NCBI GenBank assembly: GCA_965113315.1
Contig: OZ220363.1
Strand: one strand, 5' to 3'
From: Podarcis vaucheri
Lineage: Eukaryota
DNA length: 64,000 bases
The notes under the pieces are model-generated. The model saw nothing but the letters and a program-made list of their open reading frames with translations. It was not told where the DNA came from and did no database searches. The translations under genes and the position numbers were made by a program. This document shows, piece after piece, positions 2,966 to 56,300 of the stretch (the first letter of the stretch is position 1; each line of letters starts with the position of its first letter).

Positions 2966-5900
2966 GTAATGCTGCATGTCCAAAAGAGGGCTGGGCTATG
3001 CTCAGACCTTGTGTTTAGATGTGAACGTGTTTTATTTGTTTGTTTGCAAAAGAACTAGCCACAGGAGCAGAGATAGGAAAAGGGATACTAACTGTAAATG
3101 AACTTGATGAAACCAAAAAAGGTTATTAGAAAGGAAGTACAATCCTTTTAGATGTTTGCTGTAGAAAAAAGGAAGATTAAGTTTATATAGATTTGCTGTA
3201 AACATTCACTTAAATTCTGTGATGCTATTTGATACTTCATATAGTTATAAAGTTTGTTACCCTTTGCTAAAGTTAGTAACTCCCAGAATGAGTCACTGAA
3301 TGTTCTGTCAGTTTCAATAGAAGATAGGCAAAGCTCTGGGTGGTGTTGTTTTTTTAACCTAAATTATTATGAATTGTCAACCCAGGCTTTATATCTAATC
3401 TACTAAAAATAGTGTTAAAACAATGAATGGGGAAATGGCAAGGCACAGCAAGATTTTCCTTAGACAGATAACTGCTTTAGCTCCTCATCTCCCAAACCAA
3501 TGTTGCCTCTTATATGACAGTCATGCTGGTCCTGTATGGATGTATGTGAAAATGCTTCATTGGGTTTAGTGTAATTTACTTCTAGAAAAAAAATAACTGA
3601 AATCAGAGGGCATTATTTCCAAATGCCTTTGATAAAATTATGTAAGGGCTTGTAATGTTTATGACATAATAGGTAAAGGTAAAGGTACCCCTGCCCGAAC
3701 GGGCCAGTCTTGACAGACTCTGGGGTTTGTGCGCCCATCTCACATCTATTGGCCGGGGGCCAGCGCTGTCCGCAGACACTTCCGGGTCACGTGGCCAGCG
3801 TGACAACGCTGCTCTGGCGAGCCAGAGCCGCACACGGAACGCCGTTTACATAATAGCCTACAGTAAAAACCTTGACGTATGTGGAATGTCAAATTAATTT
3901 TGAATCAGTGGGCTTTAGTTCTGAATTCACTTATTGATTATAAATGGGCTTGTGTATTTGTTTTGTTCAAAATAGATTTTTAAATGTCTGATTTTGTTTT
4001 ATAAAAATGAACACTATCTCTCATGAATTTGGATTAGTGTTGTTAAAGATAGTCTGTGTCTGAGTGCTGATTGGATTACATGATCAACTAGTTCTTTCCA
4101 ATACTGTATTAGGAATCTAGAACTTATGTTTGTGCTGAAGCAAACGAATTGAGTGGGTTATTATTAAACAACTACATAAACTTATTATTTGTATCTCACA
4201 CAAAAAAGCAGAAGACATAAGACCTTTTTACACAGATTCTCTTTTGTATGACAAATGGGTGTTTGAAAACTTCCATCTACCTGCTAGCCCATAGTTCCTC
4301 CCTTGGCGCTTACAGATTATTACAATGCAATATATAATGTACAATACAATAAAAACGATCAGAGACAGAAACAAACTTCACCACTGGACAGAATAAAATC
4401 AGTAACTTTTAGCAAATTACAACTGCTTTCCTAAAAAGAAACTTGTTACCAGCTTCCCCCAAAGTGATTGTGTTAAGAAGTAGACTTCCCACAGTAACTA
4501 CCTTCCTAAGCTCTGATGACAGGGACATGTGGAACATATTTTTGCATCAGTCTGAGTGCAGTCCCCAGATCTTTCCTCAAGGAAACATTTTAATGGAATG
4601 ATATTGCACTTCCTGACCACTCAAAAGCGCAGTATATCCCCTGATGATAGTCACTGCTATTACGGTTGTGTGCTCATCTCGCTTTACTGGCTGAGGGAGC
4701 CAACGTTTGTCCACAGACAGTTTTTCCGGGTCATGTGGCCAGCATGACTAAGCCGCTTCTGGCGAAACCAGAGCAGTGCACGGAAACGCCATTCACCTTC
4801 CTGCCGGAGTGGTACCTATTTATCTACTTGCACTTTGATGTGCTTTCGAACTGCTAGGTTGGCATAGATACGTATAAAAGCCACAATATTATGCATGGTG
4901 TGACAAAAGTTGACAGAGAGAGGTTTTTCTTCCTCTTCCTCTTATAACACAACCGGGGGTCATGAATGGTGGGAGATTATGACATACAAAAGGGAGTACG
5001 CTTCACAGAGAATTATTAATATATGTTTAGTGGGAGGGAAGAAAGACTCTGTATTGTCATATCTAAAAAGGAAGAGATGAAATATTATTCTAGCTGTGCA
5101 ATCCTGACCATATTTACTGTGAAGTAAGCCCCACTGTGTTCAGTGGGATTTGTTTCCATGCAGGTGTTGATAGAATTGAAGCCTAGAGCAGTCAATTGCC
5201 AAGTACTGAGAGTTCTGTGGAAGACATCCCCAGTTAAAGATTGCAAGCCAAGAGAGTGATGGGACTAGAAGGGCTAATGTTCTGAGCTGGTATAAGGCAG
5301 CTCATTATACTAATGGCAGAATGTAGTCTTTTTCAATGAAAAGGGCAATTTTGTCTCCCTGACTAACAATCTCTCCTTATTTACTGTTCACTGAAGCTCA
5401 TTTGAGGTCTTTCTGCTAATTATATTAAAAATTCAGTGAAGGCCCGGCACGGTTGGACTTTGCCGGAATAACTGTGTTTCTATGGGTGGAATTTGTTTTT
5501 CTTCCAAAATGATATTGTAGAGCTGGAAAAGGTGTGCAAAAAGGCAGCCAAAATGATCAGGGGGATAGAGTAACTCACAACAAATGAAGCTTACAATATT
5601 TGGAGGCTACTGAATTTTTTAAAGGGGGGGTAAGGGTGAGCATGATAGAAGTGTGTAAAATTATGCGTGGAGTAGAGAGAGTGGACAGACAGAAGTATTT
5701 CTCCATCAGTCAACATCCTGGAGCCCAGAGTCATCCAGTTAAGCGAAATGGTAGGCAATTCAAGACTGACAAAAGTAAGTACTTCTTCATAAAGCACATA
5801 GTTAAACTATGGAAATCACTTCAACAGGATGTGATGATGGCCACCTACGGATGGCTTCAAAAAGGAACATAAGGCTATCATTGGGTACTAGACAAAATGG

Positions 5901-47743: not shown

Positions 47744-52644
<4,901 letters not shown>

Positions 52645-52670
52645 ATGATTTTTCTATGTACCCAGGCTTC

Positions 52671-52676
52671 AATAAA
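52671..52676 (+). terminator. RPL27A poly(A) signal
   Basis: AATAAA 26 nt after TGA, typical short RP 3' UTR. Confidence 0.85.
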
Positions 52677-53311
52677 CACAATTTCAGCTGTGTATTCATA
52701 AGCTTAAAATCTGAAGTGTCTCACTGCCAATTTGAATACTCCTAACTTGATTTTTTTTGGGGGGGGGAGGAGAGGTCCACCGAGAGAATATTTTTTTTTG
52801 TTCGTTGTAAAGATAGGCTTAAGCACATGAACAATGTTTGGTGAAATTCATTGTGTTTGGAGTGTTCTGCATGTGAGAGAGCACCTGCACATGTGCAATT
52901 CAGAGACGATACCAGTGTTTTTTGTCCCTACTGGAAATGTATCTTTCTGTGCCAAGTGGTTGTGGTTGCCCAGAATTTTGATTGTATACCATATATCATG
53001 CCATAGTCTTAAGATGACCATGTTCACATTATTCTGTTTAATGCATAGGCTTTTTAGGTAGTAAACTATGTGCAGTTCACACCAGCAAATGTGAACAAGA
53101 ACAAACTAGCTATATATTAACTTTAAGGAAAAACAAAAACATTGTACAAATCTAGGCAGCTATTTAAGTTGAAATGCTTTTTCTTCAGAATTGAACCATT
53201 CCCTATGCAGGACATAATTTGTGTTAAAATCCATGAAACATACAGTGGAACCTCTGGTTGCGGACGTAATTTGTGACAGGCAACCCACAGCGTTCGCATC
53301 CTGAAGTGCTG

Positions 53312-53570
53312 CAGACAGCTTCCGGGTCATGTGGCCAGCATGACTAAGCCGCTTCTGGCGAAACCAGAGCAGCGCACAGAAACGGCGTTTACCTTCCCGC
53401 CGGAGCAGTACCTATTTATCTACTTGCACTTTCGATGTGCTTTTGAACTGCTAGGTGGGCAGAAGCTGAGACCGAACAACAGGAGCTCACTCCGTTGCAG
53501 GGCTTCGAACTGCGACCTTCTGATAGGCAAGTCCTAGGCTCTGTGGTTTAGACCACAGCGCCACCCCCCA
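53312..53570 (-). mobile_element. Sauria SINE
   Basis: Same core as 4662-4864; preceded by a Tigger-type end at 53243. Confidence 0.85.
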
Positions 53571-53846
53571 AAGCAGCTGAACAAAAGCTCAACAACTTTG
53601 ACCTGAACCCCCCCCCCCCAAAGGGGTAGATCACTGCCAGTTTTTAGCTCTCTTGAGTATATTGCAGTCTCTTGGGAGTTGGCCACCCCTAATATAAAAT
53701 ATCTAAGGGAGGTTGCAAAGACATATATAACAATATGCAAGTTTGAATAATATTACAGAATTCATCCTCCACTGGAATGCATTCCTCAAAATTATATCCT
53801 CATGTAACAAACAAAACCCAAACAACTTCAGCTTTTACACAAACTT

Positions 53847-53852
53847 TTTATT
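53847..53852 (-). terminator. Poly(A) signal of the minus-strand RPL27A-derived unit
   Basis: AATAAA on - strand followed by GU-rich element (gttgtttgggttttgtttgtt). Confidence 0.65.
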
Positions 53853-53980
53853 AATACTTGAGACGAAAGTTAACAATAACTCTCCAAATTTATGGATCCA
53901 CTCTCCTGCTGAACACTTGAAAAGCAGTTGCTTAGGCACTTTCCCCTTCATAGTAATCCTGAGAAGAAACAAATTTGCAA

Positions 53981-54068
53981 AGTCAGTGAATAAAGATCAG
54001 TTTTTCTCTCCGAGTACTATAGCACACCACAATGACTGAAGACATCAAGATGTGACTCTAGTCTCGAT
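53981..54068 (-). ncRNA. SNORA3: Second SNORA3 copy: intact 5' hairpin and H box, 3' hairpin truncated, no ACA box
   Basis: Reverse complement is 51/58 identical to the 5' hairpin of the 50049 copy, then H box AGAGAA (54009-54004) and 19/20 match to the start of hairpin 2; homology stops ~20 nt before a splice acceptor. Confidence 0.85.
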
Positions 54069-55729
54069 TAATTATAGGTACACAAGCTTCTTACTCATTT
54101 ACTGTTTCAACCCAATACATTAATTCTGTCTAGAACTGTAAACACATAATATTTTATTTCACAAACAGAAATATTTATGAAAAACCAAGTGTTAATAAAT
54201 GTTGATATCTACAATACTGACCTTATGCTTTAATAACAAAAGCCATGCTTTTGGTTATCTCACTATTTTTAAGGATGTACTTCCATGGTTGTGCACTCTT
54301 CCAACACTACCCAGGCTTCTGGGTACAGTATTTCACATTTCCCTAAAATATAAGTAATGAAGATTATAAAATAATCTTGCAGATTTTCTAAATAATGAAA
54401 TATGCACAAAGAAAGCCACAGAATCTAGAATGCTGGGATTCTACATGTTTGATGTATAAAGTTAAGCTGTTGCTCTCAAAAAATTACTACAGGACACAAT
54501 AACTGACAATATATAAAAGTGACTAAACAATTATTCTACACAGTTTTCACAGCTGCAAGTTGTTTCAGGAAAGGGTTCTCATTAAGGCCCTTCAAGCATT
54601 AAGCACATGAAGCATGGGGATGTGCTCACAGGCTTCACCCTCTCTTACATGGTCCCATCACTGACCTCACAGCCCTTTGGGAGCTTGTTCTACTTGTTTA
54701 GGTTCCCCACACAAGTTAGGGCCACTATTGTGCAGGCTTCCCACTCTAGTACTTCAGCCCTCAAGGTATCCAGCGGCAATATGAAGAACGGGGCAGGCCA
54801 ATGAGCACCTCCTCATCCATGCAGCAATAACCATGTGATGGTGGGCGAAGAAATCAGAAATTCCTCATTGAATTTCTCAACCACCTTGCTGTCTGACTGT
54901 ATATGAGATTAATCGTTTACTCTGTGCCAGTCAGGAACAAGCAGAAAACACACTCTTCAATAACTAGGCAAGGCTTTTTCATTGGATCATTTATTGGTCA
55001 AAGGCAAACAGAGCTTTCTTCTTTAAGACTATTTTCAAATTAATCATTTCAGTTGTAAGCCACCGGCACAAACAAGAAAAGCATATACGAATACAATGAA
55101 CCTGTACTTGTTTTTTCGACATTAAAAGACTTGTTGGACAGGGCCAGAGATCCATGGGCATCCAGAATTTTGGACTGTAGCCAATGTTAGTCCTACTCAC
55201 AGTTAATGTACCTAAATCAGTCACATCTATTAATTTCAATAGGTCAACTGTATATCCTTGACTAAAGCCTTTTGTTTCCAGCTGGGGCCAAGCAAATGCT
55301 TCTGGAAGGCATATACAACAGTCCTTTCCTATCATGTGCAGAAGCATCAGGTATACAAAGTAGACTGCCTCTGAACGTAAAGATTTAATTCATCTGCAAC
55401 AGTTTTAATAGCAGCTAGTATCTATAAATTTTGCAAAGCTGGCACAAACCTGGACTTGACGCTACAGCCATCGAGCCGCATACGAGGGGGAGCCCATTCG
55501 CCGCCTACAGAACACAACTTCAGTTCGCTTCCCTTCTGTTCCTGGTCACAGGCATGGCCGAATCGCCCGATAAATTTACTTATCTTCCTCATCGTGAAAG
55601 CCTGGAAAGATTAAAAACAAAACCACTGTACTTTGCACGCTTAAGGGTGGAAAACGGAGGTTGTTTTACCCAAATACTATTTATTTTTCTTCTTTTAAAA
55701 ATAATTTTTTTAAAAAATATCAATTAAAT

Positions 55730-56300
55730 AAAAGCCCCCGTGAGACAGTTGCGGAGACCGCCCAAGACTCTCACCAAAAAAAAGATTGCGCGCCTGCTTG
55801 AACTTATTCGCTCATTTTAAACCCTGCTCCCCGCTACTCACCACGTGAAAGGAAGAAGGGAAACAGGAAGCGGAAGAAGACCTTCTTCAAGGAACCTCCC
55901 ACAATGCTCTCGGGGTGCGTGCGGGGGGGGGAGGGGCACATAGAACGGGAGAGAGAAGTGGAGCTCGGCCATTCCGAGAGCGGTAACACAGCCTGCACTT
56001 CCGGTGGCCATTGAAAGTCGTCACACTGTGGTGTACTGTGCCGCTCCAGCCCTGTGGCAGCTCTATGATAAATGCCCGCTTTGCATTGGAGGGGAAGGGT
56101 GGGGGCGGGAAACCAATTCAGGGGTATACCGGAAGTTTTCGCTCTCATCGAAGTGAAATGCATTTAGCGTCAGGAAGGCGGTGACGTCACCTAGCTTTTG
56201 GTCTTGCCACTCAAGTGGGAGGAGAATTCAGCAGATCCCCAGTTGAGGGCGGGAAACCGTCCTCAGCGCAAAAAAAAAAAAAAAGCAAGCTCCTAACACG
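55730..56300. promoter_or_regulatory. CpG-island promoter, probably bidirectional
   Basis: CpG-rich; ETS sites CACTTCCGGT 55996-56005 and CCGGAAGT 56129-56136 in opposite orientations; full CRE TGACGTCA 56182-56189; GC boxes; CCAAT 56113-56117. Confidence 0.8.

Follow-up and report, generated by a model that had tools for sequence, protein, structure and literature searches.

A SNORA3 copy without its second half lies on the minus strand of the analysed 64,000-nt stretch of DNA (hereafter the window), in intron 3 of an inverted and decayed duplicate of RPL27A, and it probably represents a complete H/ACA SNORA3 of that intron which was cut by a very recent deletion. Alignments indicate that the half copy is SNORA3 by descent and a real feature, most likely a very young snoRNA pseudogene of the ordinary kind. 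The locus appears to be a non-coding snoRNA host that arose from a ribosomal-protein gene, with an inverted duplicate of that gene taking over the protein.

The sequence-only reading of this DNA had assigned the stretch to SNORA3 and pointed to the Rfam model (RF00334) as a check. This model matched at 54068-53962(-) with 54.1 bits (E 1.3e-07), above the gathering cut-off of 51, which places the half copy in the SNORA3 family by score; hairpin 2 is missing from the match, with 33 of its model positions reduced to 9 letters in the Rfam alignment. The window holds two SNORA3 matches, this half one and a full one (50049-50179(+), 95.8 bits) that lies in intron 3 of an intact five-exon RPL27A gene (47744-52644(+), 148 aa) and served as the comparison copy. 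Over its first 58 nt, the half copy is identical to this neighbour at 51 positions, exactly the value given earlier, and the seven mismatches (positions 22, 26, 28, 29, 35, 38, and 39) include the A-T to G-C swap that had been described: pair 26-35 is G-C in the half copy and A-U in both intact copies (a true swap), pair 23-38 has changed from G-C to G-U, and 21 of 21 pairs of hairpin 1 are still standard. An eighth mismatch, at position 59, turns U-A into U-G.

Hairpin 1 (54010-54068(-)), supported by the Rfam match, its pairs, the fold z value, and the pocket pattern, carries the pocket directed at the 28S uridine that corresponds to human 3899. The H box AGAGAA follows at 54009-54004(-), 14 nt below the pocket, so that the half copy has the 5' hairpin and the ANANNA box at about 14 nt that characterize canonical vertebrate H/ACA RNAs. 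The fold z value was -1.93 for hairpin 1 of the half copy (54004-54068) and -5.26 for the intact copy, and that of 53958-54068 was -0.74, no better than shuffles. A pattern derived from the two pockets matched the 28S of this genome in 37 places (reversed control, 0), and the pocket of hairpin 1 can form 8 bp and 3 bp with 28S around UU; the earlier claim that both the guide and the H box are intact was thus confirmed. Positions 3899 and 3938 are probably the two human SNORA3 sites. The two SNORA3 target uridines in the 28S of this genome are 39 nt apart, which equals the spacing of human pseudouridines 3899 and 3938, both tabulated in PMC6182160, and from this we infer the match of the numbers.

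Homology to both intact copies ends inside hairpin 2, at a break located at 53978-53982, and only the 5' arm of this hairpin is left (53981-54000(-), including the left half of pocket 2). The orphan arm is identical to the neighbouring intact copy at 19 of 20 positions and to the other intact copy at 18 of 20. No ACA occurs between the H box and the acceptor (54010-53958); both this absence and the end of homology within hairpin 2 had been noted before and are borne out by the alignment and the sequence. The half copy thus departs from canonical vertebrate H/ACA RNAs in its lack of a second hairpin and of an ACA box placed 3 nt from the 3' end. The arm ends 23 nt from the exon-5 acceptor in the decayed gene, against 2379 nt in intact RPL27A, and it contributes the motif CACTGAC, with a predicted branch-point A at 53983, 24 nt before the last intron base. 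The break coincides with the end of homology, where the intact copies carry hairpin 2, the ACA box, and exon 4, which supports a deletion, and the conservation of a useless hairpin-2 arm at 19 of 20 positions supports a recent break.

The host gene itself has decayed considerably. The exon 2 homologue (55553-55601(-), with an acceptor, an in-frame stop, and a donor that is not fixed) was recognized from 42/61 identical positions (69%; 55613-55553), close to the roughly 65% claimed earlier, and the exon 3 homologue (54264-54342(-), with AG and GT splice sites) from 48/75 (64%); 0 of 200 shuffles reached either score. The exon 5 homologue (53830-53958(-), lower end approximate) aligned with 84 identities, 66 mismatches, and 33 gaps, a local score that is weak by itself (reached by 10/200 shuffles), and was placed by this alignment together with its position, an AG acceptor at 53960-53959, and AATAAA at 53852. 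An exon 4 homologue was not found in the decayed gene, the best score being reached by 16/200 shuffles. A putative exon 1 (55842-55879(-)), pyrimidine-rich and without ATG, is followed by a GTGAGT donor and lies inside a CpG island (55801-56200), as judged from sequence and a CpG scan. Thus, the acceptors of exons 2, 3, and 5, the donors of exons 1 and 3, and AATAAA are retained, and the joined exons contain stops in all three frames and no long open reading frame, a combination of kept splice signals and lost coding frame that is expected for a non-coding snoRNA host. The decayed copy has the appearance of a snoRNA host that descends from the ribosomal-protein gene carrying this snoRNA. Among the titles that we matched, no clear precedent for a ribosomal-protein duplicate turned snoRNA host appeared, which does not imply that none exists.

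Intron 2 of the decayed gene contains an older, dead SNORA3-like remnant (54453-54524(-); 71% over 75 columns, E 1e-05), which scored 60 against a shuffle maximum of 39 and had no Rfam match at E<=1 (54524-54453). This remnant has been struck by deletions in three of the four relatives described below (X3, X5, and X7) and illustrates how a truly dead copy looks, in contrast to the undecayed stump in intron 3. Its loop is closer to the intact copies than the loop of the half copy is. In the intact gene of the window, introns 1, 2, and 4 contained no SNORA3 remnant scoring above shuffles, nor did the rest of the second intact gene, on contig C25.

RPL27A is present as three intron-bearing copies: the intact (+) and decayed (-) genes, which are arranged tail to tail in the window (47744-55879), and the gene on C25 (at about 94100250-94107660), which lies between a C2H2 zinc-finger gene and a single-exon BTB-Kelch open reading frame. 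The C25 gene contains an intact SNORA3 (99 bits), and its protein is identical to that of the window at 145/149 positions, with 19/62 fourfold sites changed; the genome has three SNORA3 matches, two of which are whole. The half and intact copies of the window form an inverted repeat, 3.9 kb apart. A DENN-domain exon (weak, E 2e-04) lies upstream and a TRIM66 B-box downstream, both on the plus strand. In human, RPL27A and TRIM66 are presumably arranged head-to-head, and RPL27A and ST5/DENND2B tail-to-tail; on this arrangement, the ancestral position may be that of the decayed minus-strand copy, and the plus-strand gene would be the duplicate. TRIM66, RPL27A, and ST5 are given as human neighbours in PMC3744548.

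Several further observations concern these genes. Five more RPL27A matches (L014-L018) are likely processed pseudogenes, of which L014, L017, and L018 are closer to the intact gene of the window, L015 to the C25 gene, and L016 is mixed; affinities to both suggest that both intact RPL27A genes have been expressed in the germ line. Locus L010 (4101-5798(-)) contains an uninterrupted BTB-BACK-Kelch open reading frame of 566 codons, which we take to be KLHL12-like and which is possibly an intact retrogene. Intron 4 of intact RPL27A contains a 37-nt fragment of the U2 snRNA 5' end (52362-52398) flanked by a direct repeat of ~19 nt, features that mark it as a typical truncated retrocopy of U2 bounded by a target-site duplication. 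Past the first 37 nt, the full-length U2 call of Rfam at this place is spurious, and by eye a second, more decayed U2-like stretch seems to be present near 52150-52175.

The break was then compared with sequencing runs of relatives, represented by 4 of 20 matching runs (X3, X5, X7, and X9; one each from organisms B, C, E, and F, in three studies, X5 and X7 sharing one), all presumed to be DNA, X3 having no recorded kind. Contigs on the snoRNA side match the window down to 53978 and then continue with 93 (X3), 396 (X5), 278 (X7), and 409 (X9) other letters, and those on the exon side match up to 53981 or 53982 and then continue with 120, 111, 121, and 34 other letters, respectively. The match stops at the break in all eight listed contigs that reach it, from four of four relatives, and no contig bridging the break as in the window was present among the 32 of 2542 pieces listed. 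For minus-strand records, the side of the overhang was read from 30-letter overlaps with neighbouring contigs (X3 and X7), and the same convention was applied to X5; for X9, a plus-strand record, the overhang side is unambiguous. The contigs enter the extra DNA without branching and with the depth of single-copy sequence (9-27), which fits ancestral intron better than a repeat insertion, and this single-copy DNA amounts to at least about 400 bases. The junction (53978-53982) has an overlap of 4-5 nt between its two sides, probably microhomology. An overlap of this length also fits a target-site duplication, which counts against a deletion. The single-hairpin form is therefore not conserved across species: all four relatives have the extra DNA and lack the junction. 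Among the earlier proposals, that of a full SNORA3 under long selection followed by a recent deletion is supported by these data, and the outcome that had been named as refuting a single-hairpin guide, a full-length orthologue in close relatives, is largely borne out by the extra single-copy DNA in four of four. Hairpin 2 and the ACA box probably lie within this DNA.

The X3 contig has 0 differences from the window over 53978-54376 (399 nt), and all 12 differences of the X7 contig fall at 54119 or above, so that the whole half-snoRNA is identical to the window in two of four relatives; in X5 and X9, 3/5 and 1/6 differences, respectively, have no listed position and could fall in the snoRNA. 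Since the hairpin letters of X3 and X7 are the same on the long allele, the pair swap predates the break. Organism B (X3) also shares the window base at 54555, at which X5, X7, and X9 differ. In total, 20/1781 letters differ between X3 and the window (1.1%, from seven of its eight listed pieces, one repeat piece being excluded), which corresponds to about 0.5 neutral changes expected in 91 nt since the split. There has thus been too little time for the stump to decay, and its conservation is uninformative about any role as a half. The case cautions against reading a compensatory change in a truncated RNA as evidence on the truncated form before the age of the break has been established. The two full-length SNORA3 copies found in metagenome contigs (see below) are too distant to date it.

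Taken together, we propose the following scenario. RPL27A would have been duplicated at the DNA level long ago, and one copy would have lost its coding capacity, retained its promoter and splicing, and hosted a full SNORA3, the spliced intron of this non-coding host yielding an ordinary guide with two hairpins that targets U3899 and U3938 of 28S (human numbering). Selection may have preserved the snoRNA while the host exons decayed. Later, in the lineage leading to this genome, a deletion, fixed or polymorphic, would have occurred between matching stretches of 4-5 nt and spanned no less than about 400 nt. It would have taken away all of hairpin 2 beyond the 5' arm, together with the ACA box and likely exon 4, joining the stump to the end of intron 4, and would date to less than about 1% divergence. 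Splicing of exon 3 to exon 5 via CACTGAC is predicted, and the stump is likely degraded: most of it is expected to be lost, and any remainder would guide weakly. Nothing is predicted to have been lost in function, since both sites are served by the two intact copies.

Other explanations of the short form were weighed against this scenario. It is unlikely that the animal has the long allele and that the assembly dropped a few hundred bases: such an error would agree with the long form in all four relatives examined, but the assembly, with 1.6 Gb in 285 contigs, is contiguous, unique sequence flanks the site and no N interrupts it, the stretch does not recur in another version within the assembly, and an overlap of 4-5 nt is typical of real repair deletions. 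Among the runs of the window organism itself, one sample, sequenced in two runs, contains 0.98 and 0.95 of 61 words, and another sample contains 0.77; about 2.4 sampled words are expected to cross the junction, the chance that at most one does so being 0.29, and the best-matching sample may be the source sample. Among the runs listed, none of those matching is of RNA; six presumed to be RNA contain 0.44-0.57 of the words, and two contain none. An old, selected single-hairpin guide of ~65 nt, ending in AGA plus 3 nt as in trypanosomes, with an insertion gained by the relatives, would explain the intact hairpin, pocket, and 14-nt spacing as well as an H box (AGA+GAA) that formally resembles the trypanosome end, and the 4-5 nt overlap could be its target-site duplication. 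This is nevertheless extremely improbable, since a single-copy insertion would be required in four of four relatives within 5 nt of the end of homology, organism B has the window alleles (0 differences in 399 nt, and 54555) yet the long form, and the useless hairpin-2 arm is conserved as much as hairpin 1. The sequence-only reading had offered such a guide ending at the H box as one option, which finds no support here, as both the conservation and the swap predate the break. Its other option, recent gene conversion from the neighbouring intact copy that refreshed a dead half, is favoured by the inverted-repeat arrangement at 3.9 kb and by the identity of the half copy, which is higher with the neighbour (51/59) than with the C25 copy (47/59). 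However, the neighbour and the C25 copy are themselves identical at 53/59 positions, so that the half copy is not unusually close; moreover, all differences preserve structure, and similarity extends only 1 nt past the snoRNA 5' end, the flanking introns not aligning. We therefore rejected gene conversion, whose probability is close to negligible.

A recent deletion does not by itself settle the fate of the stump, which might accumulate and guide U3899 as an accidental single-hairpin RNP. The H box has the form ANA plus 3 nt, tight in vitro binding of an isolated 5' hairpin by yeast proteins is described in PMC5778458, and PMC6984369 describes single H-box stems that are stable in chimeras, when fused upstream of a C/D RNA, along with single-domain AluACA RNAs in human. 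On the other hand, nothing 3' of the H box would protect the end, the ACA box and the 3' protomer boost the activity of the 5' pocket, activity falls upon reduction to one hairpin and accumulation requires the boxes (as reported in PMC5778458 and PMC12745780), and the guide is redundant with two intact copies, which makes an accidental RNP highly improbable. Very unlikely as well is the fuller proposition that the deletion is real and that the stump, hairpin 1 with AGA-GAA, builds up in complex with dyskerin as a vertebrate guide of ~65 nt in a host made from a decayed RPL27A; if it were true, it would be a natural experiment indicating that the second hairpin is dispensable in vivo. In any event, the allele offers a natural mutant in which the survival of an isolated 5' hairpin plus H box in vertebrate cells could be addressed.

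With regard to known systems, the half copy is closest to SNORA3/SNORA45 (RF00334), with which it shares the host gene family and an intact hairpin 1, pocket, and H box, but it lacks the hairpin-2 loop, 3' arm, and ACA box, and its host is a non-coding RPL27A relic. A pattern scan of metagenomes returned 11 loci, two of which have Rfam SNORA3 matches, both full length (L020:605-736 and L025:1590-1723); these contigs are probably host-animal DNA, and the exons beside the two copies presumably belong to RPS5. Such copies fit the movement of SNORA3 between ribosomal-protein hosts, as PMC13736004 places human SNORA3A in RPL27A and describes its moves among hosts of this kind, and a table of PMC1636440 locates SNORA45 in RPL27A. 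Trypanosomatid AGA-box and archaeal single-hairpin guides are resembled in that the half copy, if trimmed at the H box, would be one hairpin plus AGA and 3 nt with 14-nt spacing. The likeness is only formal, since the H box AGAGAA is ANA plus 3 nt and any H/ACA 5' half is alike. Those guides are ancient, expressed, and Cbf5-dependent (the trypanosomatid AGA guides as defined in PMC2613932), whereas the half copy is young, still carries one arm of a second hairpin, and is known from sequence alone.

Two further comparisons concern the stump as a relic and its host. Like other truncated snoRNA pseudogenes, which are a known class, the stump is a redundant copy with a box missing; in contrast to them, it would have arisen through an in-place DNA deletion instead of retroposition and is too young for decay. 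The host resembles non-coding snoRNA host genes of the SNHG/GAS5 type in its pyrimidine-rich start, CpG promoter, splice sites with AATAAA, absence of a long open reading frame, and conserved intronic snoRNA amid decayed exons, but differs from them in that the decayed host, putative by sequence, is visibly a duplicate of the snoRNA's own ribosomal-protein host.
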